Source: a virus (Duplodnaviria; Heunggongvirae; Uroviricota; Caudoviricetes). Taken from it: a DNA stretch of 64,000 nt. Location: the IMG/VR virus record IMGVR_UViG_2657245091_000008; one strand, written 5' to 3'. Position 1 is the first letter of the stretch; the number at the start of each line of letters is the position of its first letter. The notes under the pieces were generated by a model. It was not told the origin of the DNA. It saw only the letters and a program-made list of their open reading frames with translations, and did not search any database. Below are positions 12,557 through 54,890 of this stretch, piece by piece. The translations under genes were made by a program, and so were the position numbers.

Positions 12557-13456
12557 CTAAATCAATAGCATGGATTTTCCCGTCCCGGATGGTGCGCCAG
12601 TGCTTTCGTGATCCACCTTCGGGCCATACCATACACCTTCAGGCCAGGAAGAACGACGACACACTGTTGCGTATCCAGTCCTGATCTTCTCTCTGGCGGT
12701 ATGTAGTGACAGATTATCCTTTGGGCTTTCAGGCACAGGATGGTGGATTGCCTGAAACATCCCCATCTTTGGATGATACCAGCGTTTATTGCGTGGTTCT
12801 GCCTCCGACATCACCTGCTTAAAGGCTTTCCGGAAGGGGGCCAGGGCCACAATGGAGCGTCGCGCAAGCAAACCATCTGGAGTTAAAAACTCATGCGTAT
12901 CGGTGGGAATCCGGTAAGCGTTGACCAGGTTTCGGCATTTGGCTTCAGTCAGGCCGCATTTCGCCGCCAGCTGGCGGTAGCCAATGTAGCCTTCCGGCAT
13001 ATTGCCTTTCTTTATTTGCTCGACGGTTTCAGCGACTTTGGACACTTGTGCCGATACTTCGGCTACCTGGGCATTAACAGCGTTGATCCGGCGTTCATGC
13101 TCAAGATGCATTTGCGCCATTTCAGCCAGGATTTCGGCTTTTGATTTTAACGGTTCCCTGGCATTCTCCAGTTCGCGCCAGCGGTCCACCAGCCGGGCGG
13201 TGAATTCCGGAGAGAGCTGTGCGACGACAATGATACTATCGCGCTTGCCTTGTTCGCCTTCGAAGACGTAAGCCTCGACACTACGGCGTAGTCCTAAGTT
13301 GTTGATTTTTTCGAAAACCTCAATTTGAGGAAACCGGACAACGCCACCTTTGGCTAATGTCTCAATAGTGCGTTTCACATTATCATGACGCTTACCCACC
13401 AGTTCCGCGATCTCAATACTGGTCATTGTCGCTTTGCGAGAGATGGGCAGATTCAT
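12557..13456 (-). CDS. antirepressor-like protein (Rha/Ant family), copy 1, with C-terminal extension
   Basis: Clear paralogue of the protein at 53637-54344 over about 230 aa; here the stop is absent and the frame continues about 70 aa through sequence homologous to the small ORF 53440-53640. Confidence 0.65.
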   Translation of the reverse strand: MNLPISRKATMTSIEIAELVGKRHDNVKRTIETLAKGGVVRFPQIEVFEKINNLGLRRSVEAYVFEGEQGKRDSIIVVAQLSPEFTARLVDRWRELENAREPLKSKAEILAEMAQMHLEHERRINAVNAQVAEVSAQVSKVAETVEQIKKGNMPEGYIGYRQLAAKCGLTEAKCRNLVNAYRIPTDTHEFLTPDGLLARRSIVALAPFRKAFKQVMSEAEPRNKRWYHPKMGMFQAIHHPVPESPKDNLSLHTAREKIRTGYATVCRRSSWPEGVWYGPKVDHESTGAPSGTGKSMLLI

Positions 13457-13671
13457 CAGTGCACCTCCACGCAGTTCATCGGCAGATTCCAGTAATTGAG
13501 GATCTCCATCGCATCAAGAGTGAAGCGAGCAGCAAAAATGCAGGGTTCTTCGGGAAGGTATGAGCGCGCTTCTGCTTCGGTTGTAGCCATGACGCAGATA
13601 TACAGGTGTTTTTGGCAGGAATAGAAACGCCAGATAAATTCAGAATGAGTTGGGGTAGGGATAGTAGCCAT
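13456..13671 (-). CDS. Icd-like small protein, copy 1
   Basis: 71-aa ORF overlapping the ant start; paralogue of 54344-54568 (shared EFIWRF, TEAEARS); position matches P1 icd upstream of ant. Confidence 0.5.
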   Translation of the reverse strand: MATIPTPTHSEFIWRFYSCQKHLYICVMATTEAEARSYLPEEPCIFAARFTLDAMEILNYWNLPMNCVEVH

Positions 13672-13980
13672 ATTGGCAGCCTCCTTTTGCTAAGTTAAGG
13701 AGCTACCGCGTGAGGTTCCAATCTCAATGGCGGTAGCACTGACTGGGTTGGAACTACCGGCGCAAAAGGGAACCGGCCTGCCTTTCGGCAGCCCAGCCAG
13801 CACTACCATTGATCTCTGAGCTAAACGCTACGTATGGCTGTGCGATGGCATGACACAAAAAAAGACGCTTTCGGCGTCTGTGTCGCCTTTTGCATTATCC
13901 GGGGTTCCAATCCCGGCACCCGTTTTTCTAAGGTGCCGTAGAAATATACCCCACGATAATGCCAGGGCGCAACAGTCAGT
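13672..13980 (-). ncRNA. structured untranslated leader, candidate c4-like antisense RNA region (copy 1)
   Basis: No credible ORF; GGTTCCAATC occurs twice (13706-13715, 13903-13912) with a partial complement at 13736-13745; hairpin plus T run on the minus strand around 13856-13880. Confidence 0.3.
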
Positions 13981-14482
13981 ATTTTATGCTTTGGCGGATT
14001 TCTTCCGGGCTTGCTTGCAGGCGTAGGCCATTGCTTTAGCTTTCACTTCATCCAGCTTCCCGGTAATCACTTCTTTTCCGAGAGTGACAAACCAGTCATA
14101 GCAACCGCCAGTAATGTTCTTGATTTGAAAGTTGAGGTAGCGAACAGTCATTTTGACACCCCCAGCGCGAATAAAGAATGCAGATTATCGCGTGAGTGGT
14201 GGACGACGAGTGATGGGAAAAGACTGTAGTTGTTCATAGTGTAGTGACTCCTTGCTTTCGGAGCCGCCATCGACTGTTCCACGGTCTGGTGGCGGCGCAA
14301 TAAAGGCTGGAACACCGTGAGTCAACGGGGGCTTTTCAGCCACCTATATTGCACCGCCATAGGTATGGCGGCGGCAATAATACGAAAAACTAAATAGTTT
14401 GTCTCAAAAAGTTGACCGGTGTGCCAATCGGTAGTGAATGTACATCGGAGAAATTTTCAATTCAACTTAAAATGTTAGAAAA

Positions 14483-15061
14483 CTAATTTATCAATTCAAT
14501 TGCCATCTGATACAACGCCATTTCATCGGCATTGTGCCGTATGAAATCTGCTTTTCCGCCTATTTTTCCATCAGCATGAACAGGGACCAGCCAGGGATAT
14601 TGTTCTCGGACCTCGGCTGGCGCTGCGTACTGGTGGTGCCATTTACACAAAGGGAGGACATATTTATGCGCGTTCTCTGCCGTTCTCCCGAAGATATGGT
14701 GCAGGGATACCACTGGGCTATGTTGCCCGTGAATATGGCAGGCAATGCAGGGGAGAGTACCGATAGCGGTCTGTATCCGGCGTTCATCGGCTGTGAGTGA
14801 TCTGCCCTTCAGGCCGCGTGACGTGCGTGTTTTTTTGGGCGGAGCGGATACAGCTTTATCTTTTCTCCGCTGTTCATATTGCTTTGCTTTTTCAATTTTC
14901 TTTTGCCGATATTCAGGCGATGCGGCTTTTTCTCTCGCTCGCTGCTGCTGGCGTTGAGCTTGTTGAAGGCGCTTTGCCCTTTGTTCCTCTCGCCAGGCCG
15001 GGTCAGCCAATTTTTGCATGGCCTTTTGTCTCTGTTTCTCCCAATAACTCTGTTTCTGCAT
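14483..15061 (-). CDS. ref: Ref-like recombination enhancement HNH nuclease
   Basis: 192-aa ORF; highly basic Gln/Arg/Lys-rich N-terminal half and Cys/His-rich C-terminal core (PCIACHIHGQH...LPLCKWHH). Confidence 0.55.
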   Translation of the reverse strand: MQKQSYWEKQRQKAMQKLADPAWREEQRAKRLQQAQRQQQRAREKAASPEYRQKKIEKAKQYEQRRKDKAVSAPPKKTRTSRGLKGRSLTADERRIQTAIGTLPCIACHIHGQHSPVVSLHHIFGRTAENAHKYVLPLCKWHHQYAAPAEVREQYPWLVPVHADGKIGGKADFIRHNADEMALYQMAIELIN

Positions 15062-40014: not shown

Positions 40015-40090
40015 TGGTGGCCCCTACCGGATTTGAACCGGTGACCGTGCGATTATGAGTCGCCTGCTCTAACCACTGAGCTAAAGGGCC
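40015..40090 (-). tRNA. tRNA-Ile (anticodon CAU, ileX-like) or tRNA-Met
   Basis: Minus-strand GGCCCTTTAGCTCAGTGGTTAGAGCAGGCGACTCATAATCGC...GGTTCAAATCC...GGGGCCACCA; cloverleaf with CAU anticodon and encoded CCA; very close to E. coli ileX as I recall it. Confidence 0.8.
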
Positions 40091-40227
40091 AGATTACTGT
40101 TAATTCCGCTTACGCTTTTTGCCAGAACCGCGTAAGGCTTTTGCCGCTTGCTCGACCCCATATGCAACCACCAGCAAAAATAAAAATGTCCAACCAGGGT
40201 TCTTATCGGCAAACGCCCAAAAATTCA

Positions 40228-40551
40228 TCACTTACAGCCACCTTGCATTTCCTCGGATAATTCATTGATTTTAGTGCTCAATAAGTAATCAAAGTAAAGA
40301 TAAAACACAAAAGTAACGATAGTGCTTAAAGTGTCTGAAATTGCGTATTTCAGCTCAGGAAGCATGACAAAGCAGACAAATAGCGGAAGAAATAACTGCA
40401 CTATGCACAGGCTCTCCTTCCACAACCATCTATATCTGAAGTCTGACAACAAAAACTCCATTGCTTGAAACTTTATTAGATTGCGGTGCCTGGTGCCTCC
40501 AGGTGACGTTAACCAGTTAACAATTAACGCCGGGATGTTTGACTTAACCAC
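40228..40551 (-). CDS. possible small membrane protein between tRNA genes
   Basis: 107-aa AT-rich ORF with hydrophobic stretches; no clear ribosome-binding site. Confidence 0.25.
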   Translation of the reverse strand: MVKSNIPALIVNWLTSPGGTRHRNLIKFQAMEFLLSDFRYRWLWKESLCIVQLFLPLFVCFVMLPELKYAISDTLSTIVTFVFYLYFDYLLSTKINELSEEMQGGCK

Positions 40552-40711
40552 TAAGGAGGATTGTTTTAACTGTTCCGCGTGCGCTTAGCCGCATTCACCG
40601 CAATGGTAAGAGCACTTGGCTGGCTGGGCGGCGATGACGCCTGTACGCATTTGGTGATCCGGTTCTGCTTCCGGCATTCGCTTAATTAGCCAAATACTCT
40701 TAACGTTGCGC

Positions 40712-40798
40712 TGGCGGAGAGTAATGGAATCGAACCATCATCGCTTGCGCAATGGGACGGTTTTCAAGACCGCTTGAGCACCATGCTCCCTACTCTCC
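40712..40798 (-). tRNA. class II tRNA, anticodon UGA (tRNA-Ser-like)
   Basis: 87 nt; acceptor GGAGAGT/ACTCTCC, anticodon loop CUUGAAA, variable arm with GCAA tetraloop, T loop TTCGATT, discriminator G, encoded CCA. Confidence 0.65.
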
Positions 40799-41170
40799 CG
40801 TTATTGTGGCGACCGGTGCTGATCTCCGGCTTGCGGTTATTTCAGACTCTCACGGGCGTTTAATTGCCCCGCCGAACAGCTCTTTTCCGCAATAGCTGCA
40901 ATGTCTTTCGCGCATCAGCCTGCGCATTCACCACAATGTTGAGAACACTGGTTGTCACGCTGCAACGCAACATTTATTCGTAGATTGGGATATGACCCCG
41001 TTACGCCAGTGTTCTCAACGTTGTAGTGCCGGTTACGGTTCCGGCCAGGCCTCTTCCTCAACGGGGTGTTCTCCATACGGACTACCGTTTATTGGTCGTT
41101 CCTGCGGTTTATGTTGTGAAGCCAGATGCTTATCTTCTGGTTGCTTCAAAGAGCTGCACTTCCTCACAAC

Positions 41171-41244
41171 GGTAAGGGTACTTCGTAGGGATTCGAACCC
41201 TCTGCCAAGCTCGGCGATCTCCGACGTCGCAAAATACCCTTACC
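41171..41244 (-). other. tRNA-like fragment / degenerate tRNA
   Basis: Contains a T-arm-like GGGTTCGAATCCC and a 10-bp terminal inverted repeat (GGTAAGGGTA...TACCCTTACC) but no foldable anticodon or D arm. Confidence 0.3.
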
Positions 41245-41252
41245 TGTTGTGC

Positions 41253-41328
41253 TGGTGCCGATTAACGGACTCGAACCGCTGACCATTCGCTTACAAAGCG
41301 ACTGCTCTACCAACTGAGCTAAATCGGC
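41253..41328 (-). tRNA. tRNA-Thr (anticodon UGU)
   Basis: GCCGATTTAGCTCAGTTGGTAGAGCAGTCGCTTTGTAAGCGAATGGTCAGCGGTTCGAGTCCGTTAATCGGCACCA on the minus strand. Confidence 0.85.
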
Positions 41329-41332
41329 AATT

Positions 41333-41419
41333 TGGTGGGGAGTGATGGAGTCGAACCACCCGAGTCGCAATGACAGTAGATTTACAGTCTACCCCGCTAC
41401 CCCTACGGACTAACTCCCC
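41333..41419 (-). tRNA. tRNA-Tyr (anticodon GUA)
   Basis: 87-nt class II tRNA; anticodon arm GTAGACTGTAAATCTAC, T loop GGTTCGACTCC, discriminator A, CCA. Confidence 0.8.
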
Positions 41420-41424
41420 TAAAG

Positions 41425-41501
41425 TGGCGATGGTGGGTGGATTCGAACCACCGACCGACAGCTTAGAAGGCTGCTGCTCTATCCTACTGAGCTACACCAT
41501 C
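41425..41501 (-). tRNA. tRNA-Arg (anticodon UCU, rare AGA/AGG decoder)
   Basis: GATGGTGTAGCTCAGTAGGATAGAGCAGCAGCCTTCTAAGCTGTCGGTCGGTGGTTCGAATCCACCCACCATCGCCA. Confidence 0.8.
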
Positions 41502-45933: not shown

Positions 45934-48900
45934 TTAGGCCGCATCGGCGATTATTTTACGCAGTTCATCTACCGAGTAACGCGTAGATACCATCCATGCA
46001 GGACGGTCAAAGTTCACATCAGCAACCGGGTTTGCTTCAAAATTCCAGAAACGCCCGCCAATCTTCTTAATCGCGTCTTTGGCGTTCCGTATTGTCGAGG
46101 AACCTGGTTGGTCGGCAATGAGATAAACCGCGCCAACGTCCTCGCTGACGCTCCACCAGCGCCCGCGAACACGCGCCTTAGCGCGAATCGGCTTATCATT
46201 AACCACAATGATATAGTCATCATTCGCCGCTTCATCAGCTCTGGCTTCAGCCACTGCCGCCTGCTCTTCTCTTTTGCTTTCAGCCTGCTCAAGCCTTTCC
46301 GCGATCTCTGATTCAGTGGCCCCGCCGTTTTTCAGCGATACATAGTCCTGCCACGTTGCCGATTTGAGCGCATCCGGCAACTCATTCACATAGTCGCCGT
46401 CTTTCAACTCACGGGCGCGACGGGTAGCCATTTCTACCAGGCGATTAACAGAAACAGCATCAGCAAAATCGTCCTTACTAATGTATTTTTCATCAAATGC
46501 ATTGATGACAGCCCCCACCTTAATCCACTGTGCTGCCGGTGATTCCAGGGGGTTATCAGCCTGAACAATGGCTAGTTTTGCTCCATCTACCCCATTATTC
46601 GCCAGCTGTTCCAATGCCGCCCATCCATCTGCATCACTGAGTGATTTATATTGCTCAAACAATGCATCGCGCCAGGCCACCAGCGCAGAACGTGTTTTTT
46701 CGATCTTCGTCTTAATTTTCGCTATCTTGACCTGATTAAACATCCGTTCAATATCATCGATATTGCTAAAGGCTTTCATCCTGCCCTGGAATAAACGGTA
46801 TGCCAGCACGGTCCTCCAGAATGATTCCAGACCTTCTCCGGACGGTTTGCGGAACAAGCTAAGAATATCTTCAGAAGTGACTTTATTAAGCGAACGACCT
46901 GACAGACCACGCCCAGCCATCCAGTTTTCGAACTCCTGGGCAACATCATCCATCGTTGCCTGTGCGCCCCATGCCTGCATTCCCTGGATGTAATCATACC
47001 CATACAATGCCTGGAGGAATCCCTCGCCGTCCACGATATTCAGCGGGTTATCACTGGCTTGTATTTTTGCCACTTCACGCTTCAGCGCCTCGTCGTTGCC
47101 ATCAGGATATATCCATCGCTCAGGTGCTATATCCGATGCTCGCCCGATTTTTTGGCCTATCACGCCATCATAGGTCGATGACAGTGCGATCTGACCATCA
47201 TCTGTGCGATAAGCCCAGTATTTAATAGCTGACCCACCGCCCCATGCATTACCAGGTTTACCAGCAATAACATTCATTACCCCATTACGAATAGCATCAT
47301 AGAACTGATCGCGAGTAAGTATTGTTGATAGCTGGTGGCACTGAACACCACGCGCAGCCGTTGCGCGCGATTCAGCAACCCCCTCTTCAAAAGTTACCGC
47401 TTCAATCACAGAGTCAAACGGCAATGTAACGATTGACCCCGGTGATCGAGCGTAACGACTTGCTCTATCCAGCCAGGCGATACGGCAGATGTATTGTGCT
47501 TTTTCACCGTCAATTTTTTCCACCCGGACAATCGCTGTTGTTTCGCGATCATCAATGACTGCACGGTAATAACTACCTTTATGCAACAGGATATTCTTGT
47601 CAGTGCGCATATATTCCTGTGGGTTCTGAATAACATCGATACTGATATCCAGCACACCAGACTTAATAGCGCGCTCCACATCACCACGAGAGCGTTTCAT
47701 TATGGTATCCGCGTCTTTTGCCCTGGTGATCGCAAACCGCAGCACCCGCGCACGTTTTCTGTAGCTACTCAACTGCTCAAGCGCGTATTTTTGCCCATTC
47801 CTGTTCGTACCCGCTTTTATCAGGTCGTCAAGATTGCGCTGGTAATACTCTATCTGTTCCATCGCGCTTTTCAGTTCTGTCTCCATCATGCCGATATCTT
47901 TTCCGGCGGCGTTTGCCGCTTTCAGGTAGATATCGAGAGCATTGTTGGCCTCGCGCTGTGCTTTCAGTTTCAGACGTTCTTCACGCTCTTGCGCCTGGCG
48001 AGCCATGATTGCGCGGCGTTCTTCCGGGTTTGCCGCCAGCATAATGGCGCGTTCATCAGCATCATCCGCATCACCATTGGCGATCTCTGACATGTCGGAG
48101 GTCATCACCATCTTGATCCAGTCTTTCTTACGTTTCAGCGTATCCAGACGGAAGTCGTCGAATGTGCCTTTGCCACAATAGTAGTGAACATTGACCTTTT
48201 CTTGCGGTGAACCTACGCGCGCACCGCGCCCATTTCGTTGGTCGATACTGGCTGGCGTCCAGGGCAGTGTCAGGTGGTGGATATCGGTTGTCCCGATGTG
48301 CAGGTTAATACCTACTTCAGCCTTCTTGTTACAGATTATGATGCGCGTGCGACCTTCGTTATAGTCGGCGGCAATACCTTCCATGCCCTCAAGGCCAGCA
48401 TCATTTTTAGCGGAGAGATAATCCTCATATTGGGCAAGTTTGCTGTAGTAGGTTTCCCATGCCCCTTCTTTGTATTCACCGTTTTTGTTTGGAGTAGGTT
48501 CGGTCGGCTTATTCACCTTCTTCAGCTTGATGCCGCCAGCCTGGCTAACTGTCGTTGCATTGATAATGCCAATCTCCTGCTCCGGCATTTGCAGTGCACT
48601 GGCGATAATACGGCGCAGCTTCTGGTGCTGGGCTTTTTCATCAATAAAGACGATCTGCTTACCGTTCTTCAGACCTTCACGAAGATTTTCGATCAGCGCG
48701 GCATACTTCGGCGGGATGGGGTGCGATACCTGCTGCATATCAATACCGGCAGCCGCAATGGCCTTAAGTATTTCAGCTTCCAGTTCAATGCTGGCACGTA
48801 TTTCAACATGCGTCGGATGTTCACTAAAAGCGGTCTTCACTACCTTGCTGGTACGCGTACTGACCAGCCCGCCAGCGCCGTCTTCCTCGGCCTCATCAAC

Positions 48901-51900
48901 ATCATCTGCCACTTTACCGCCAGCTACTTTTGGCAAGGCATCAGCAATAGCTTTTACCTGGTCTGCAAGCTCAACGGGGAACTGGAATGTAATCGCACTG
49001 GCATACAGATCCGGGTCTATAGCAACCTTGTCCATGTCACGGATGATGGAGAAGATGAAATCATCCGGTTTGTCGTTAGTGATATGCCCGTTTTCATCGA
49101 CTGTCAGCTCATCATTGCGACTTAACTCCTGAGCACGCTTACGAAGCTCTTCATAAGCAGTCTCCTGCTCCCCTGTCATCGGGATCTGCAAGGTGTTCTC
49201 AATGATGTCGGGAATTTTAACCGTTGCTCCGACATCTGCAGCAGTCTTCAGAGTGGTCCAACGATGGAAAATACCACGCAGGCCGTCAAGGTTCTGGAAG
49301 CCCACCAGCCCCTGCTTCTCTTCCACTTCCCCGGAAATTTTCTGGACCTGAACTGTGGCTGTTTTGCCAAACACACGAACGAAATCATCAGGCGTAATGA
49401 TGCCCATGCGCATCCACTCTTCCTGCGGAATGACAGTAGACAGCATGTTGAAGGCATCAATCGGACTGTTCACCAGCGGAGTTGCCGTCAGCATGACTAC
49501 ACCACGCCCGTTGTTGCGTTTCATCATGTACGCAGCTTTTACAGCCATGTCGCGGGCCATCTTGGATACTGCCGGGTTAGGCAAATATGCCAGTTGTCCC
49601 GCTTCACGCCCGGCATTAAAGGAGTTGCGGTAGTTATGCCCCTCGTCGGCAATCACGCTATCGAAGTTCATATCCTCAAAGTACGGGATATTCTGCTTCT
49701 TCGTTGTACCGGTATTCGCGGCCTGATCCTTAATCTTGTTCTTCTTCTGCGCATCACGGTGTTTACCGGACGCCAGGTCAAGACGCCCCATTTCCACAGC
49801 ATTAAAGACAGCTTGCTGTGAGTTCTCCTCGATGGTTTTTTCTCGTAGCGGGATAGACGCGAATTGTTCTTTTGTCATGATGACCGTTCGCCAATTTGAC
49901 GACGGGATCATGTTCATGCGCTGAACGATAACGGCGCTGGCGGACTCTTTCACAACATTTCTGGTAAGAGGCTGCCCGTTACTGTCGAGGCGTGGTTCGC
50001 CATTTTCATCAAGCACCGGCGCGGTCAGAATATTTCCGCTGTCATCACGAACTTCATCCAAACCGATAAACATCATATTGGCGAAGGCATCAGCACTGTA
50101 GAAACTCTGTGCCTCGTGATACCAGTTCTGATAAACCGCCTTCGGAACAACAATACACGTGCGTTTAGTGCGACCTGTTTCGAAGTTATACGCCTCAAGC
50201 GCAAGCGCGGTCGTGGTTTTACCCAGCCCGGTACCAAATCCCATGATGCCGCGCCCATCTTCTGACAAGCGCCGAACTTCTTCATTCTGATAAGTCAGAG
50301 GAATGCGCTTTCCACTAATCCCTTCCAGGCCAAGCGGTGCGTCAGAATGCGTGAACGGAATGAAACCATTGAATGCGTCGTTATACTCGCGGGCTATCTG
50401 ATCAGCCTGCGGGTGAGTGCGTAACCAGTCGTTAAAGCTAACTTCCAGTTGAGCAATTTTATCCAGGTACTCGTTAGCGTTCTGCCCACGCGGTTTAACA
50501 CCGTTCAGGTAGTTTTCTAACTGGTTCAGGAAGCCGTCTTTATTGTTGGCCTTCTTGAACTCATTCCCGTTTTTGCCGTTTACGGTTCGTAGCTGATAGC
50601 CGGTAAATACACCGTCCTTACCTTCGTAATCGTCCGGAGATACCAGAATGCCATCGACGACCTTCAGATCAGGTTCAGTGTACTTAAACTCGTCATAGCC
50701 CTGCTCTGCCAGGAACTCTTTTATCAAGCGGCGATCCAGCCAGCGGGCATTCAGATTAACGGTGACTTTATTTAGTGGCGTGAAAATACGTTTCTCTTCG
50801 ATTTTCGCCAACTGACGCTCAAAGTTGGCTTTCTGCTCACCTGTTGACGCATCACGCCAGCTCATCAGCAAAGCTGTTTTGGTTGCAATATCGCCGCTGG
50901 TGGCGCGGTCCATCGGCAGCAGGCAGCCATACCCATCAATAGCGATATCATCAAATTTCGCCAGGTATTCAAGGGCCGCGTCGTCGTCCTCTGGCAGTTC
51001 ACCAGCAAACGCCTCACGAAAGTCTCCCAGCGTTATAGGATTAAGGGCTACATCACTGAAAAGATGTGCTATCACTTGTTCAGGACGTGTAAAGTCAATA
51101 CCGGCAGCACCATCCGTTACATCAAGTCGCCCTGCCAGAAGGTCAGAAGTGGAACCATCCTGTTTCACATTGCCAGTGAACGTCATCCAGTTTTTAGCGC
51201 CAGCTTCAGCAAGCCCATTCAGCTTAATGGCGTGCGGTGGCCCATACTTCGCAACTTCTGCTGCCGCCAGGCGGGATGCATCTGCCAGTTTGTCATCAAC
51301 GTTCACACCCAGGTTACGCAAATCAAGTGCCTTGTTGATCAACTGACCTATCAGCGCACCGCGCATAACGCGCTCCCTGTCTTTTTCTCGCTGCTTGCCA
51401 GCAAAGCGAATCATTGCTGCCACTTCATCACTGACAACCGATGGATAGTCGGACGCGATCGCCGATATCTGGTCCCATGACAAAGCCAGAATCCCGTTTG
51501 TTGACTGGAACGCGATCTGCAGATCGCCAAACGTCGAAACACCATATCGACTTACATCAAGCGCGGAGGATTTGGTTGTCGTGTCCTTAACCCATTTCAG
51601 ACCATCAAACTCATGCCAGATACCGCCTACAAGGCGTTTATCGCCCACTTTCGCGCCCTGCCATGCCTGAGTAGTTACGCCGAGCAAATCCCAATTGATG
51701 CGACTATCAAAGCGACGAGATAGCGCGGTTTTCATCGACTCATTGGATACACGACCGTCTTTTTTCACCACCAGGGTATTGCGGAAGCTGGTACGTTCCA
51801 TGTCGCCGTAAACAAATCGCTTCCCTTCGGTTGTAAACCATTTTCCTTTGAGGAAGGTATCCCAAAGGACGTTTGCCGATTTGAGTGTTGAATCATCCGT

Positions 51901-52770
51901 GTCGGGGATCATCTCCAGGAAGGTTTCCGGGTGTTTACGCAATACCCATACGTCCACCACGGTATCTGTACCGGATTCGCTGAACGTACCAGAAGGCATA
52001 CGATGTGCGCCCAAAAATTCCGCTTTACGGCTGACTTTATCGCGCAATTTTTTATATTTCGCACCATCGGTCATGCCATTCGGCACCACCAATACGATAA
52101 GCCCACCAGGCTTAACCTTGTCGATCGTGCGCAGCACAAAGTAATTGCCAACGTTCTTCTCGTTTGCATATGCCGGATCAAGCCCGGCGACACCGGAACG
52201 CCCTTCACCAAACGGTACGTTACCAACAGCGTGATCATACATTGCGTCTTTCGCCGCCAGCGCCTCAAACGCCCCGATATTCACATCGTCTTCCGGGTGC
52301 AAAAGCTGGTTTATTCGACCGGAAATCGGAGACAGTTCGGCGCTGGTCATTATCATGCCCTGCCGTTTTGTCTCCTGGAAAATACCTGTGCCCGCTGATG
52401 GTTCCAGTACGTGCCCGCCATCAATACCGTAGTCAGCAAACAGATCCCATATACCTTCAGCCATAAACTGTGGCGTGTAGTATTCGTATTGGCTGCCCTC
52501 ACCATCTGTCAGGCCGCCTTCACCGGTATACCCGGCAAGAATCTGACGTTGTTCGTCAGTTAATTTCGCCCCATCGAAGCCGGGCGGAAGGGAATTAAGA
52601 AGATTTACTGCGGCATTATTTGCTGCCCGGCGTGTTTTCTGAATACTGACGCCATCGGCTTTCCTGACGCCAAAGGTCGCAACAGCACGTAATTTATGCA
52701 ACCGACTAACAATTTCAATCAGTTCGCCTAAGCTGGAGGCTTCACTGATTGAATGAAGTAGTTTGTCCAA
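45934..52770 (-). CDS. darB: DarB-like antirestriction protein (N6-adenine methyltransferase plus SF2 helicase)
   Basis: 2278-aa single ORF; methyltransferase motif GNVPFGEG near the N-terminus, helicase DEGH box mid-protein; size and architecture match P1 DarB; TTG start with GAGGGGGA Shine-Dalgarno. Confidence 0.75.
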   Translation of the reverse strand: MDKLLHSISEASSLGELIEIVSRLHKLRAVATFGVRKADGVSIQKTRRAANNAAVNLLNSLPPGFDGAKLTDEQRQILAGYTGEGGLTDGEGSQYEYYTPQFMAEGIWDLFADYGIDGGHVLEPSAGTGIFQETKRQGMIMTSAELSPISGRINQLLHPEDDVNIGAFEALAAKDAMYDHAVGNVPFGEGRSGVAGLDPAYANEKNVGNYFVLRTIDKVKPGGLIVLVVPNGMTDGAKYKKLRDKVSRKAEFLGAHRMPSGTFSESGTDTVVDVWVLRKHPETFLEMIPDTDDSTLKSANVLWDTFLKGKWFTTEGKRFVYGDMERTSFRNTLVVKKDGRVSNESMKTALSRRFDSRINWDLLGVTTQAWQGAKVGDKRLVGGIWHEFDGLKWVKDTTTKSSALDVSRYGVSTFGDLQIAFQSTNGILALSWDQISAIASDYPSVVSDEVAAMIRFAGKQREKDRERVMRGALIGQLINKALDLRNLGVNVDDKLADASRLAAAEVAKYGPPHAIKLNGLAEAGAKNWMTFTGNVKQDGSTSDLLAGRLDVTDGAAGIDFTRPEQVIAHLFSDVALNPITLGDFREAFAGELPEDDDAALEYLAKFDDIAIDGYGCLLPMDRATSGDIATKTALLMSWRDASTGEQKANFERQLAKIEEKRIFTPLNKVTVNLNARWLDRRLIKEFLAEQGYDEFKYTEPDLKVVDGILVSPDDYEGKDGVFTGYQLRTVNGKNGNEFKKANNKDGFLNQLENYLNGVKPRGQNANEYLDKIAQLEVSFNDWLRTHPQADQIAREYNDAFNGFIPFTHSDAPLGLEGISGKRIPLTYQNEEVRRLSEDGRGIMGFGTGLGKTTTALALEAYNFETGRTKRTCIVVPKAVYQNWYHEAQSFYSADAFANMMFIGLDEVRDDSGNILTAPVLDENGEPRLDSNGQPLTRNVVKESASAVIVQRMNMIPSSNWRTVIMTKEQFASIPLREKTIEENSQQAVFNAVEMGRLDLASGKHRDAQKKNKIKDQAANTGTTKKQNIPYFEDMNFDSVIADEGHNYRNSFNAGREAGQLAYLPNPAVSKMARDMAVKAAYMMKRNNGRGVVMLTATPLVNSPIDAFNMLSTVIPQEEWMRMGIITPDDFVRVFGKTATVQVQKISGEVEEKQGLVGFQNLDGLRGIFHRWTTLKTAADVGATVKIPDIIENTLQIPMTGEQETAYEELRKRAQELSRNDELTVDENGHITNDKPDDFIFSIIRDMDKVAIDPDLYASAITFQFPVELADQVKAIADALPKVAGGKVADDVDEAEEDGAGGLVSTRTSKVVKTAFSEHPTHVEIRASIELEAEILKAIAAAGIDMQQVSHPIPPKYAALIENLREGLKNGKQIVFIDEKAQHQKLRRIIASALQMPEQEIGIINATTVSQAGGIKLKKVNKPTEPTPNKNGEYKEGAWETYYSKLAQYEDYLSAKNDAGLEGMEGIAADYNEGRTRIIICNKKAEVGINLHIGTTDIHHLTLPWTPASIDQRNGRGARVGSPQEKVNVHYYCGKGTFDDFRLDTLKRKKDWIKMVMTSDMSEIANGDADDADERAIMLAANPEERRAIMARQAQEREERLKLKAQREANNALDIYLKAANAAGKDIGMMETELKSAMEQIEYYQRNLDDLIKAGTNRNGQKYALEQLSSYRKRARVLRFAITRAKDADTIMKRSRGDVERAIKSGVLDISIDVIQNPQEYMRTDKNILLHKGSYYRAVIDDRETTAIVRVEKIDGEKAQYICRIAWLDRASRYARSPGSIVTLPFDSVIEAVTFEEGVAESRATAARGVQCHQLSTILTRDQFYDAIRNGVMNVIAGKPGNAWGGGSAIKYWAYRTDDGQIALSSTYDGVIGQKIGRASDIAPERWIYPDGNDEALKREVAKIQASDNPLNIVDGEGFLQALYGYDYIQGMQAWGAQATMDDVAQEFENWMAGRGLSGRSLNKVTSEDILSLFRKPSGEGLESFWRTVLAYRLFQGRMKAFSNIDDIERMFNQVKIAKIKTKIEKTRSALVAWRDALFEQYKSLSDADGWAALEQLANNGVDGAKLAIVQADNPLESPAAQWIKVGAVINAFDEKYISKDDFADAVSVNRLVEMATRRARELKDGDYVNELPDALKSATWQDYVSLKNGGATESEIAERLEQAESKREEQAAVAEARADEAANDDYIIVVNDKPIRAKARVRGRWWSVSEDVGAVYLIADQPGSSTIRNAKDAIKKIGGRFWNFEANPVADVNFDRPAWMVSTRYSVDELRKIIADAA

Positions 52771-53439: not shown

Positions 53440-53640
53440 TCAAGTCACGATCCAATCATTACCGACTATATCAGCCGTCGATAAATCAACTTCCCGGATC
53501 TGGAGTCCATTAATACAAAACCATCCGGTAGTAGAGTAATTATCAGGCCAGGCCCATACACCAACACTCCATGCTTTACGGCGGCACACTTCAGCCTGTC
53601 CTTCCCTGATTTTTTTTACCGCCTGCATGATGTCCATCAC
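53440..53640 (-). CDS. hypothetical small protein downstream of ant copy 2
   Basis: 66-aa ORF; its homologue in copy 1 is fused in frame to the ant gene. Confidence 0.35.
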   Translation of the reverse strand: MMDIMQAVKKIREGQAEVCRRKAWSVGVWAWPDNYSTTGWFCINGLQIREVDLSTADIVGNDWIVT

Positions 53641-54344
53641 TCACCTCCCCAACCGATCACCTGGAATTGCCCCATTTTGGGGTGATACCAGCGTTTTCCT
53701 CGGTGTTCAGCCTCCGACATCATCCGGTTAAAAGCATTCATGAAGGGATATAAGGCCACGATGGAACGACGCGACAATACCCCCTCTGGAGTTAAAAACT
53801 CATGCGTATCGGTGGGAATCCGGTAAGCGTTGACAAGGTTGCGGCATTTGGCTTCAGTCAGGCCACATTTCGCCGCCAGCTGGCGGTAGCCAATGTAGCC
53901 TTCCGGAATATTGCCTTTCTTTATTTGCTCGACGGTTTCAGCGACCTGGCTAACCTTTGACTCAACAGCATGAATCCGCTTTTGCTGCTGAACTGCATTC
54001 GCAGCCATTGCAGCGATCATCTCTATTTCGGTCAACGGCTGGCGTACTTGTTCTTCCAGTTCGCGCCAGCGGTCCACCAGCCGGGCGGTGAATTCGGGAG
54101 AGAGCTGCGCGACGACAATGATGCTGTCTCGTTTGCCTTGCTCGCCTTCGAAGACGTAAGCCTCAACGCCACGACGCAATCCTAAGTTATTGATTTTTTC
54201 GAAAACAGCCATTGGCGGTTTTCGGATAATGCTTCGAGCAACCATACGCTCAATACTACGTTTAACGTCAGAGTGTTGGCTTCCCACCAGCTCCGCAATC
54301 TCAATGCTGGTCATTGATAGTTTTTCGAGAATGCAGATACCCAT
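53637..54344 (-). CDS. antirepressor-like protein (Rha/Ant family), copy 2
   Basis: 235 aa; paralogue of 12557-13456; coupled to the upstream Icd-like ORF. Confidence 0.65.
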   Translation of the reverse strand: MGICILEKLSMTSIEIAELVGSQHSDVKRSIERMVARSIIRKPPMAVFEKINNLGLRRGVEAYVFEGEQGKRDSIIVVAQLSPEFTARLVDRWRELEEQVRQPLTEIEMIAAMAANAVQQQKRIHAVESKVSQVAETVEQIKKGNIPEGYIGYRQLAAKCGLTEAKCRNLVNAYRIPTDTHEFLTPEGVLSRRSIVALYPFMNAFNRMMSEAEHRGKRWYHPKMGQFQVIGWGGE

Positions 54345-54568
54345 CAGTGAGCCTCCGCAATGCCGGGATTGGTAATATTGCGATACCAGGGATTAGTGTT
54401 TGGTTGTGGGGAAGTAGAGAAACGACCAGTAAGAACACCATGCTGATCAGGGATCAGAGAACGGGCTTCTTTTTCGGTTGCGGCAATTGCGAAGTGATCG
54501 CAGCGTTTTTGCAGGGAGTGGAAACGCCAGATGAATTCTGGACGTGAACAAGGATTGGCATTAACCAT
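54344..54568 (-). CDS. Icd-like small protein, copy 2
   Basis: 74 aa; paralogue of 13456-13671. Confidence 0.5.
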   Translation of the reverse strand: MVNANPCSRPEFIWRFHSLQKRCDHFAIAATEKEARSLIPDQHGVLTGRFSTSPQPNTNPWYRNITNPGIAEAH

Positions 54569-54890
54569 AGTTACGGCCTCACTAACAGGTTTAACAACCT
54601 GCCACCCGCTGTCAAACAGGTGGCAGGACGTGACAGGGTTGACAGACTGGCGTTAGTGAAACCAGCAGGCCGAAGCCTCCCCATCACGCCCCACCATAAT
54701 TCGGGCGTAACGCGGTTTACGGACACAAAAATACCGCAATATCGGAAATCTGCGGTTGTCCGCACTAACATTCAGGCTGTCAAACCCGGTCGCAGAATTT
54801 GCTACGACGGCATGAATATAAGCCTGAAAACATGGAAGATCAACTAAAAATTTCAGCAATGGATGACTTCAGTCGATGATGCAGATCATA
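54569..54890 (-). ncRNA. structured untranslated leader, candidate c4-like antisense RNA region (copy 2)
   Basis: CTGTCAAAC occurs twice (54609-54617, 54777-54785) with its complement GTTGACAG at 54638-54645; 9-bp stem hairpin CCTGCCACC...GGTGGCAGG. Confidence 0.3.

Follow-up and report, generated by a model that had tools for sequence, protein, structure and literature searches.

Control of phage anti-repressors by c4-type antisense RNAs has reportedly been known since 1990, from the work of Citron and Schuster on the immI regions of P1 and P7. In P1, RNase P cuts the c4 RNA out of the leader transcript as a species of about 77 nt, and the downstream anti-repressor is silenced through loss of translational coupling and through transcriptional polarity; the repression of transcription there is itself said to be a consequence of the translational block, as reportedly described by Biere, Citron and Schuster in 1992. 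The immA anti-immunity operon of N15 is likewise said – the report being that of Ravin et al. in 1999 – to be controlled by a small processed RNA.

Further members of these RNA families have been described in P4 and Gifsy-1. IsrK has been equated with P4 seqA, and C4 with the P4 CI RNA (PMC3632133), and the P4 RNA is reported to act by premature transcription termination rather than by occlusion of a ribosome-binding site (PMC4825925). In Gifsy-1, a Rho-independent terminator marks the end of the IsrK RNA, and transcription past it gives an mRNA from which an RNA of about 80 nt (STnc1160) is processed – one overlapped by a small ORF, orf45, and followed by the gene for the anti-repressor AnrP (PMC4825925). 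Pairing between the IsrK loop and the downstream sequence was validated in that system by compensatory mutations, and the published model puts its emphasis on trans-activation by the short RNA over c4-type repression: short IsrK RNA activates translation of the anti-repressor, and over-production of the c4-like RNA did not stop this activation (PMC4825925). For D6-like prophages such as pYU39_89, in turn, a region related to ImmI, in which c4 and icd are joined by an anti-repressor gene, has been noted along with a second region with c4 and icd (PMC6799933). Switches of this kind are thus already on record in the literature as the "IsrK-C4 immunity system", and both c4/icd regions of D6-like prophages have been noted there.

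The window – the whole 64,000-nucleotide stretch of viral DNA analysed here – is a D6-like P1-type plasmid prophage. Its module 1 is very probably an IsrK-C4 (c4/immI-type) antisense-RNA immunity module, with a regulatory function assigned by homology; its elements (isrK, c4, the icd-like and the ant-like gene) are all transcribed from the minus strand. Its features, together with a second c4 module in the same window, are as follows.

13972..13943, minus strand: putative sigma-70 promoter, read from the sequence (−35 TTGCGC at 13972..13967, 18-nt spacer, −10 TATATT at 13948..13943)
13936..13857, minus strand: IsrK-type leader RNA (Rfam RF01394 isrK at 13936..13858, 62.5 bits where the gathering score is 50, the model being covered in full, 1-77)
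13910..13904, minus strand: target a1, UUGGAAC, in the loop of a CGGG/CCCG hairpin and inside the decamer copy 13903-13912; exact complement of a'
13893..13886, minus strand: target b1, GCAAAAGG; exact complement of the c4 b' loop
13879..13857, minus strand: Rho-independent terminator, AGACGC-CGAAA-GCGUCU followed by U7, with a 6-bp GC-rich stem (terminator scan)
13813..13726, minus strand: c4 antisense RNA, Rfam match (RF01695, 76.7 bits against a cutoff of 45, E=3e-13, model positions 1-87 of 87)
13807..13729, minus strand: predicted mature c4 RNA, 79 nt, its ends placed by aligning it with the 77-nt c4 annotated in P1
13762..13769, minus strand: c4 segment b', CCUUUUGC, the loop of the second c4 hairpin; pairs with b1 and b2 (exact complementarity and co-variation)
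13748..13754, minus strand: c4 segment a', GUUCCAA, single-stranded 3' of the second c4 hairpin; pairs with a1 and a2 (exact complementarity and co-variation)
13737..13702, minus strand: 8-bp hairpin with a2 in its loop, read from the sequence; GCUACCGC (13737..13730) pairs with GCGGUAGC (13709..13702)
13721..13715, minus strand: target a2, UUGGAAC, inside the decamer copy 13714-13723; complement of a'
13690..13683, minus strand: target b2, GCAAAAGG; exact complement of b', overlapping 4 nt of the icd Shine-Dalgarno (SD) sequence
13671..13456, minus strand: icd-like gene, 71 aa, AUG at 13671 (NCBIfam phage_ICD_like, 49.7 bits against a cutoff of 25)
13456..12557, minus strand: ant-like gene, 299 aa, Rha/Ant-type putative anti-repressor (Pfam Phage_pRha, 35.9 bits against 29.9)
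53.6-54.9 kb: module 2, the second c4 module, with a c4 identical to that of P1; 89% identical to P1

The gene part of module 1 is compact. The icd-like product shows 61% identity to P1 Icd across 59 residues, its reading frame is preceded by the SD sequence AAGGAGG (13686..13680, minus strand), and its stop codon is overlapped by the start of the ant-like gene, whose product matches PHROG 63, 'anti-repressor Ant', with E=2.7e-45. The orthologues in D6 are annotated as Icd-like and as anti-repressor Ant. The first gene would very probably encode a cell-division inhibitor and the second an anti-repressor, both being kept off by c4.

Upstream of these genes, the original prediction had recognised the architecture of a c4-type antisense RNA, and this is what the leader contains: an Rfam C4 match well above threshold – the covariance comparison with the P1/P7 c4 family – in the leader of an operon transcribed in the same direction, with duplicated targets that co-vary with it in relatives. 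Folded as minus-strand RNA, the 79-mer adopts the C4 structure, a long closing stem around two hairpins, at −46.6 kcal/mol (z=−5.3). Among 36 distinct related leaders, on which all formal pair counts given here are based (four P1-type rows, shifted by a base at a' in the alignment, were left out of them, their pairings being taken from k-mer analysis), pairing in the three helices of this fold stands at 99.5%, 100% and 100%, and the pairs changed on both sides number 9, 4 and 1, respectively. None of 42 leaders departs from AUGG at the 5' end or from CC.CC at the 3' end, and both motifs match the ends of the annotated 77-nt RNA of P1.

How the RNA meets its targets differs in part from what had been expected. 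The 64-kb window holds just two copies of the repeated decamer, GGTTCCAATC: one at 13903-13912, as originally predicted, and one at 13714-13723 rather than 13706-13715. Its partial complement (GGTTGGAAC) is likewise present, at 13746-13754 and not at 13736-13745; it corresponds to the a' segment of c4. Two of the three coordinates first proposed were thus off by 8-10 nt. The decamer copies carry UUGGAAC, complementary to the GUUCCAA of a', and are the a1 and a2 sites of P1 nomenclature, neither of which covers the ribosome-binding site. A second set of complementarities, overlooked at first, does so, through its b2 copy only: CCTTTTGC stands on the plus strand at 13683-13690 and 13886-13893, giving b2 and b1 in the RNA, and its complement is found in the RNA at 13762-13769, in the b' loop. 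The idea of an antisense RNA with two decamer targets that occludes the icd ribosome-binding site therefore survives in its pairing with two targets but not in its geometry, since the decamers lie off this site and it is b'-b2 pairing, overlapping AAGGAGG, that covers it. All four duplexes are exact, over 7 bp for the a sites and 8 bp for the b sites.

The a2 site also sits where it had been placed structurally, within a hairpin with an 8-bp stem – on the plus strand, GCTACCGC (13702-13709) with GCGGTAGC (13730-13737) – whose loop holds the decamer copy 13714-13723. As the upstream arm of this stem is at the same time the 3' strand of the c4 closing stem, the a2 hairpin and the closing stem are mutually exclusive. 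The arrangement is found in P1 and module 2 as well, and in relatives the pairing of this hairpin reaches 96.5%, with both-sides changes at 3 pairs. Another candidate hairpin, predicted in the fragment that follows c4, would sequester the SD sequence by pairing GGUAGCUCCUU with AAGGAGGCUGCC; it is 92.7% paired, with a single both-sides change in one sequence only, and its upper half is not conserved.

The isrK element adjoins C4 on the same strand, 44 nt upstream, with an Rfam E-value of 5e-11, and overlaps a sub-threshold match to Rfam c4-a1b1. It consists of a 5' hairpin, the hairpin with a1 in its loop, the single-stranded b1 and an intrinsic terminator, and its helices are 96-100% paired in the 36 relatives. 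As IsrK-C4 systems do, it carries C4-complementary sequences (a1 and b1), and it is the counterpart of P4 seqA and of the a1b1 of P1. The minus-strand hairpin and U run that had been noticed at 13856-13880 are indeed there, at 13879..13857, where the Rfam isrK model has its 3' end; in relatives, pairing in the stem stands at 95.7% and the U run is conserved. As an IsrK-type leader RNA terminates at this hairpin and U run, module 1 comes nearest in architecture to the IsrK-C4 type of P4, N15 and Gifsy-1 rather than to the classical P1 immI.

A putative promoter lies just upstream, from which transcription would start at about G13936. It agrees with consensus at 8/12 positions only, i.e. it is weak by this measure, and the promoter scan did not flag it; its position agrees with the 5' end of the Rfam isrK match, and TTGCG(C/T) with a −10-like hexamer at the same distance recurs in divergent leaders. 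With a strong terminator between this putative promoter and c4, synthesis of c4 should depend on read-through.

The c4 RNA and both sets of targets change together across the 36 leaders, with 96-100% of positions paired and 3-4 compensatory pairs per intermolecular duplex, against only 27-49% pairing in register-shifted controls; the conservation of repeat and complement, on which the original prediction had staked itself, is thereby borne out. In detail, a1-a' is 99.6% and a2-a' 100% paired, each with 4/7 pairs changed on both sides, while the b1-b' duplex is 96.2% paired with 3 pairs so changed and b2-b' 96.5% with 4/8. Natural alleles switch at all three sites at once: GUUCCAA/UUGGAAC in the window and GUCUCAA/UUGAGAC in D6 for the a sites, CCUUUUGC/GCAAAAGG and CCUUUGAC/GUCAAAGG for the b sites. 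All four combinations of two a and two b alleles occur on one backbone in relatives, in addition to further alleles. The a allele of the window is shared by an N15-like Klebsiella plasmid (L007). One relative (L070) departs from the rule in that its a1 is mismatched to its own c4, with a2 still matching.

Taken with what is known from P1, these elements suggest the following sequence of events. Transcription of the minus strand would start near 13936, from the promoter at about 13972..13943, and most transcripts would probably end at the terminator, giving an IsrK-type RNA some 80 nt long that carries a1 and b1. Those that run past the terminator would contain c4, which, by homology with P1, would be excised as an RNA of about 79 nt (13807..13729). 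Its b' loop and its single-stranded a' segment would then pair with b2 and a2 on the mRNA of its own operon, and as the b'-b2 duplex would hide part of the icd SD sequence, icd would not be translated. The ant-like gene would be silenced as in P1, through lost translational coupling and transcriptional polarity, and with both icd and the anti-repressor silent, the prophage would stay repressed. For the a1 and b1 sites, which can bind the same c4 segments, the most plausible role would be to adjust how much c4 is free or how often the terminator is read through.

The P4 homologue, however, is reported to act by termination, so the dominant step in module 1 could be other than occlusion of the ribosome-binding site. 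On such an account – possible, though we would not favour it – c4 would pair with a1/b1 and a2/b2 on the nascent transcript and cause it to end prematurely, at the IsrK terminator, in the leader or in icd, instead of blocking ribosomes. This would alter the mechanism only and leave the identity of the elements as it is. The layout of isrK, terminator and C4 is common to module 1, P4 and N15, the terminator is canonical and conserved, and the P4 CI RNA has been described as terminating transcription through pairing with seqA and seqC (PMC4825925; PMC3632133). Moreover, the co-variation with c4 is as tight for a1/b1 as for a2/b2, which indicates that the upstream pairing is under selection. Yet b2 overlaps the SD sequence in module 1 and, with few exceptions, in the 36 aligned leaders too, as the translational model predicts and pure termination does not require; c4 comes after the terminator, whose stem is overlapped by neither a1 nor b1. 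The reported dependence of transcriptional repression on the translational block in P1 also counts against this account.

About as tentative is a reversal of roles along the lines of Gifsy-1, in which the short terminated IsrK-type RNA (13936..13857) would act in trans, titrating c4 or remodelling the read-through mRNA so as to turn icd/ant translation on, with c4 as the default brake. When Gifsy-1 IsrK was supplied in trans, translation of anrP rose by a factor of more than 100, by way of the same loop pairing (PMC4825925). In module 1, the duplex of a' with a1 in its context is predicted to be more stable than that with a2 (−15.7 vs −8.8 kcal/mol), and the terminator and a1/b1 are conserved, the latter co-varying with c4. 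Against a central part for the decoy stands L070, whose a1 no longer matches its own c4 although its a2 does, so that a1 pairing appears to be dispensable, at least transiently; besides, a decoy is compatible with translational repression by c4 and does not exclude it. Module 1 could also work as an RNA-only circuit of three parts – a speculative reading, to which we would give rather less than even weight – where an abundant terminated IsrK-type RNA serves as a specific decoy for its cognate c4 and sets a threshold for the anti-repressor, and where the a and b sites are independently exchangeable 'digits' of specificity. If so, several plasmid prophages of the P1-, D6- and N15-like kinds, or a pair of modules within a single prophage, could coexist without cross-talk, and the window prophage would be hetero-specific with D6 at module 1 and c4-homo-specific with P1 at module 2.

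It is highly improbable that the conserved sequence works not as RNA but through a small protein of the 'Ash family', encoded by the 39-aa ORF 13809..13690. This ORF does match Pfam Phage_ASH (PF10554; 32.5 bits against a cutoff of 26), PGAP calls an 'ash family protein' here in related plasmids, and the analogous orf45 of Gifsy-1 has been reported as translated (PMC4825925). Its frame, however, is open for anything from 14 to more than 53 codons across variants, stopping after 14 in P1, in module 2 and in one relative (L061), and for this failure to be maintained across homologues it was rejected as a coding sequence. The amino-acid changes follow the specificity alleles of the RNA, the substitutions over the ORF are compensatory in the RNA helices, and the predicted 5' end of c4 lies inside the Ash AUG; the c4 of P1, too, was first deposited as a CDS (record X15639). 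Chance, finally, may be set aside as practically negligible: short motifs of this kind are individually not rare in a GC-rich intergenic region (CCTTTTGC is found 4 times in the window, with 3.5 expected), but two three-way segments (at least 7 nt, with the reverse complement both up- and downstream) arose together in 0/5000 dinucleotide-preserving shuffles of the leader, and one such segment in 10/5000, the Rfam E-values are 3e-13 and 5e-11, and the sites co-vary in 36 leaders.

The region thus merits annotation as two RNA genes (an IsrK-type leader RNA and c4) and four target sites. The labels that it bears at present are 'ash family protein' or 'hypothetical protein'; the D6 record has only hypothetical proteins over the RNAs. 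Another D6 annotation, 'orf84', a plus-strand ORF antisense to the RNAs, was considered and discarded, its counterpart in the window having an in-frame stop. The evidence from module 1 indicates that Rfam isrK, Rfam c4-a1b1 and Pfam 'Ash' describe parts of one RNA system. The biological novelty is small; the value of the locus lies in a natural co-variation data set in which c4 and all four target sites switch together.

Among known systems, the orf82-orf83 region of D6 is the direct orthologue of module 1, the two being 92% identical across 1.9 kb and 96% identical across the leader. The D6 a allele differs from that of the window at all three sites, and the two prophages are therefore predicted to be hetero-specific at module 1. 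N15, a plasmid prophage like the window, scores for isrK at 62.4 bits and for C4 at 78.8 bits, with an annotated terminator as well, upstream of an operon that ends in an Ant gene (gene 30), but differs from module 1 in its b allele, in the sequence of its c4 stem and in the additional genes of its operon. In P4, isrK (60.8 bits) is followed by C4 (74.9 bits) as in module 1; its CI RNA, however, is described as prematurely terminating a replication operon, and no icd/ant follows downstream. Gifsy-1 has isrK and C4 in tandem by Rfam and a layout of terminator and read-through like that of module 1, with the difference that module 1 has an icd-like gene, its SD sequence covered by b2, between c4 and the anti-repressor, and that Gifsy-1 is a lambdoid prophage in the chromosome.

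The likeness to P1/P7 immI that was first proposed is thus real but not the closest one. P1 (NC_005856) is annotated as a1-b1-c4-a2-b2-icd-ant, and module 1 shares this order, the RNA family and the fold. In both, the a site measures 7 nt and the b site 8 nt; b2, annotated in P1 as the site of repression of icd/ant translation, lies at the icd ribosome-binding site in module 1 as well; and a few bases in a'/b' and in the sites they pair with determine specificity, as they do between P1 and P7. At the nucleotide level, module 1 has no megablast match to P1. Between b1 and c4 it has a canonical strong terminator, where P1 has a hairpin with a 12-nt loop that the terminator scan did not call; its anti-repressor is of the Rha/Ant (PHROG 63) type, in contrast to the annotated ant1/ant2 pair of P1; and the P1-type C1 operator, searched for by its consensus with up to 3 mismatches, has no match in the window. 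The c4 loops of module 1 and P1 differ in sequence, and modelling predicts the two to be orthogonal, as are, by prediction, modules 1 and 2. It is module 2, by its sequence, that is the P1 immI orthologue in the window, and there the prophage is predicted to share the c4 specificity of P1; module 1 stands closer to the IsrK-C4 layout of P4, N15 and Gifsy-1.

Module 1 is a probable immunity region, transcribed throughout from the minus strand, in which an IsrK-type leader RNA and a C4 antisense RNA (scanned with Rfam at curated thresholds of 50 and 45 bits, respectively) precede an icd-like gene and an anti-repressor gene that overlaps it, its start lying on the icd stop. In P1 nomenclature – a1/b1 and a2/b2 for the upstream and downstream target sites, a' and b' for the c4 segments that pair with them – its elements are as follows.

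Elements of module 1 (all on the minus strand)
13936..13858: IsrK RNA, Rfam 62.5 bits
13910..13904: a1, UUGGAAC
13893..13886: b1, GCAAAAGG
13813..13726: C4 antisense RNA, Rfam 76.7 bits
13769..13762: c4 b', CCUUUUGC
13754..13748: c4 a', GUUCCAA
13721..13715: a2, UUGGAAC
13690..13683: b2, GCAAAAGG
13671..13456: Icd-like gene, 71 aa; NCBIfam phage_ICD_like, 49.7 bits against a threshold of 25; 61% identity to P1 Icd
13456..12557: Rha/Ant-type anti-repressor gene, 299 aa; Pfam Phage_pRha; PHROG 63 'anti-repressor Ant', E=2.7e-45

Judging by alignment to the annotated RNA ends of P1, mature c4 would span 13807..13729 (79 nt). This predicted 79-mer alone folds to the family structure (-46.6 kcal/mol, z=-5.3), and the AUGG and CC.CC motifs at its predicted ends are invariant in 42 leaders. 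The Rfam isrK model is built from a 5' hairpin, a second one with a1 in its loop, a single-stranded b1 and a terminator, the last being the minus-strand hairpin and U-run that the original prediction had recognised (13879..13857).

That prediction, made from the sequence alone, also rested on a repeated decamer, GGTTCCAATC, of which the window does have exactly two copies. The one proposed at 13903-13912 is confirmed; the other, placed at 13706-13715, is at 13714-13723, where it does sit in the loop of the proposed 8-bp hairpin, GCTACCGC (13702-13709)/GCGGTAGC (13730-13737). The partial complement GGTTGGAAC exists as well, at 13746-13754 rather than 13736-13745. A second complementarity set had been overlooked: CCTTTTGC, on the plus strand at 13683-13690 and 13886-13893, with its complement at 13762-13769. 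Among 5000 dinucleotide-preserving shuffles of the 265-nt leader, none (0/5000) produced two central segments that each have a reverse complement on either side, upstream as well as downstream, and 10 produced one such segment. Two coordinates aside, the pattern is thus real and non-random. What requires revision is the role given to the decamers as the sites at which the ribosome-binding site is occluded: they hold a1 and a2, and since b2 overlaps the icd Shine–Dalgarno (SD) sequence AAGGAGG, 8 nt ahead of the start codon (AUG, 13671), the pairing that covers it is b'–b2.

The comparison with relatives covered nine annotated loci from plasmids or phages, together with 80 viral contigs gathered via the Icd protein. 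c4 is present in 90 of 91 loci, in 16 sequence versions and within 42 different leaders; its loops and both target sets switch in concert.

Alleles of c4 and its targets
This window: GUUCCAA/UUGGAAC and CCUUUUGC/GCAAAAGG
D6, at a', a1 and a2: GUCUCAA/UUGAGAC
Other relatives, at b', b1 and b2: CCUUUGAC/GUCAAAGG
More distant leaders: AGACCAA/UUGGUCU, AGGCCAA/UUGGCCU, ACGCCAA/UUGGCGU

Pairing in 36 isrK-type leaders (share of cells that pair; number of pairs with both partners changed)
c4 helices: 99.5-100%; 14 over all helices
a'–a2: 100%; 4
a1–a': 99.6%; 4
b'–b2: 96.5%; 4
b1–b': 96.2%; 3
8-bp hairpin: 96.5%; 3
Terminator stem: 95.7%; 1

When the partners were slid by 1-3 columns, pairing fell to 27-49%, so the repeat–complement pairing on which the original prediction had staked its case is conserved; together with the shuffles, these counts exclude a chance origin. 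The a alleles GUUCCAA and GUCUCAA occur with the b alleles CCUUUUGC and CCUUUGAC in all four combinations on a nearly identical c4 backbone, counted in 27, 17, 5 and 5 records (leaders upstream of icd in the related loci L003, L012, L082 and L050 and in D6, L001). Both target sets match c4 in each combination, a pattern suggesting that D6-like and IncY P1-like plasmids have exchanged immunity specificities as modules or diversified them. A natural recombinant is also found (L070, 434-708), whose upstream a1, UUGAGAC, no longer fits its own c4, with a'/a2 GUUCCAA/UUGGAAC. In Salmonella pLG25p2, two C4-family RNAs (322-409 and 673-760) lie on the same strand about 260 nt apart, one with an isrK-type and the other with a P1-type backbone. 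Behind the first comes an Icd-like ORF that is either truncated or fused, and the locus resembles two modules joined in tandem or as a chimera.

The complementarity of b' and a' to b2 and a2, their positions and their co-variation are direct observations. By homology, c4 would be excised from read-through transcripts, and its b' and a' would bind b2 and a2 and so cover the icd SD; repression of icd would follow as in P1, and the anti-repressor gene would presumably be silenced together with it. What a1/b1 and the terminator do is the least certain part of this explanation: they may bring about c4-dependent termination, for which P4 offers a reported precedent, or may tune free c4 by acting as a decoy – two options that are not mutually exclusive. 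The 8-bp hairpin, conserved even in P1, borrows the 3' strand of the c4 closing stem to display a2 in its loop and therefore cannot coexist with folded c4. A third alternative structure is possible: in the predicted fold of the post-excision leader (13664-13728, minus strand), GGUAGCUCCUU pairs with AAGGAGG and GCUGCC, sharing GGUAGC with the 8-bp hairpin. Conservation is compatible with this candidate SD-sequestering hairpin, though without multi-sequence compensatory support.

Two ORFs across these RNAs were rejected as coding. One, of 39 aa and exactly over c4 (13690-13809, minus strand), has hits to Pfam Phage_ASH (PF10554) and to several PHROGs labelled 'transcriptional repressor/regulator', and PGAP calls an 'ash family protein' in relatives (L003, 802-921; L004, 768-887). 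Its frame, however, ranges in open length from 14 to >53 codons across variants, with P1 among the truncated ones, and the amino-acid replacements track the RNA alleles. Since the frame is not conserved, these families probably include translated c4/CI-type RNAs; P1 c4, too, was originally deposited as a coding sequence. The other, D6 orf84 (99 aa; L001, 4240-4539), spans the IsrK and c4 RNAs on the antisense strand. Its counterpart (13727-14026, plus strand) is broken by an in-frame stop at codon 31, and orf84 is therefore probably not a true gene.

A second immI-like module lies at 53637-54860.

Elements of module 2 (all on the minus strand)
54821..54769: c4-a1b1 match
54701..54616: c4
54568..54344: icd-like gene
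54344..53637: Rha-like gene

It is 89% identical to the P1 c4-icd region, and its c4 matches the mature 77-nt P1 RNA base for base, so this D6-like prophage should share P1 c4 specificity. The anti-repressor of module 2 does not belong to the P1 ant1/2 type. Module 2 carries the alleles CUGUCAA/UUGACAG and CACUAAC/GUUAGUG. Module-1 c4 is predicted to bind the module-2 sites weakly (a2, -1.6 kcal/mol; b2, -4.0 kcal/mol) compared with cognate duplexes (-8.8 to -15.7 kcal/mol), and the modules therefore look orthogonal at these operator-proximal sites. Of the two, it is module 1 that represents the non-P1 lineage. RCS47 and JL22, which are P1-like phages, have a module of its type as a second copy.

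The 2 kb around module 1 share 92% identity with the P1-like plasmid prophage D6 (an Escherichia phage), whose orthologous genes are annotated as Icd-like protein and anti-repressor Ant, and the 561-bp module-1 region is matched in 728 plasmid records, E. coli predominating. Just upstream, as in D6, is a Ref-like RecA-dependent nuclease gene (14483-15061, minus strand; Pfam RecA_dep_nuc, E=1e-34). Also on the minus strand are a four-tRNA-gene cluster typical of P1/D6-like phage-plasmids (Rfam; 40018-41501) and a single 2278-aa ORF (45934-52770), which, judged from the ORF list alone, seems to carry methyltransferase- and helicase-like motifs and may be comparable to the very large DarB-type protein of P1.

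In P1, as annotated in GenBank, promoters are followed by a1 (7 nt), b1 (8 nt), c4 (77 nt), a2, b2 at the icd ribosome-binding site, icd and ant. The proposed likeness to P1/P7 immI holds at the level of the C4 family, every sequence-testable feature of which is found in module 1, but not as strict P1 immI orthology: a search of the window at up to 3 mismatches gave no P1-type C1 operator, module 1 has no megablast match in P1, and the anti-repressor is of a different type. Its isrK-then-C4 tandem is instead common to P4, N15 and Gifsy-1, and every sequence-testable feature of an IsrK-C4 system is present. Rfam isrK (RF01394, no clan) and c4-a1b1 (RF03163, clan CL00128) match overlapping coordinates here (13896-13949), in an N15-like Klebsiella plasmid (L007, 740-828) and in Gifsy-1 (L094, 34240-34329), and appear to model one element with and without the terminator. 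Experiments in Gifsy-1 have shown that IsrK ends at the terminator, that read-through yields an mRNA from which an ~80-nt RNA is processed, and, via compensatory mutations, that the IsrK loop pairs (PMC4825925). The name 'IsrK-C4 immunity system' was already used, and equated with P4 seqA/CI RNA, by Barquist et al. 2013 (PMC3632133), who noted structurally similar systems in P1, P7 and N15. As both an ImmI-related region (c4, icd, anti-repressor) and a second c4/icd region have been reported in D6-like prophages (PMC6799933), module 1 is a correct but already known finding, of practical value for annotation and as a clean series of co-varying alleles.
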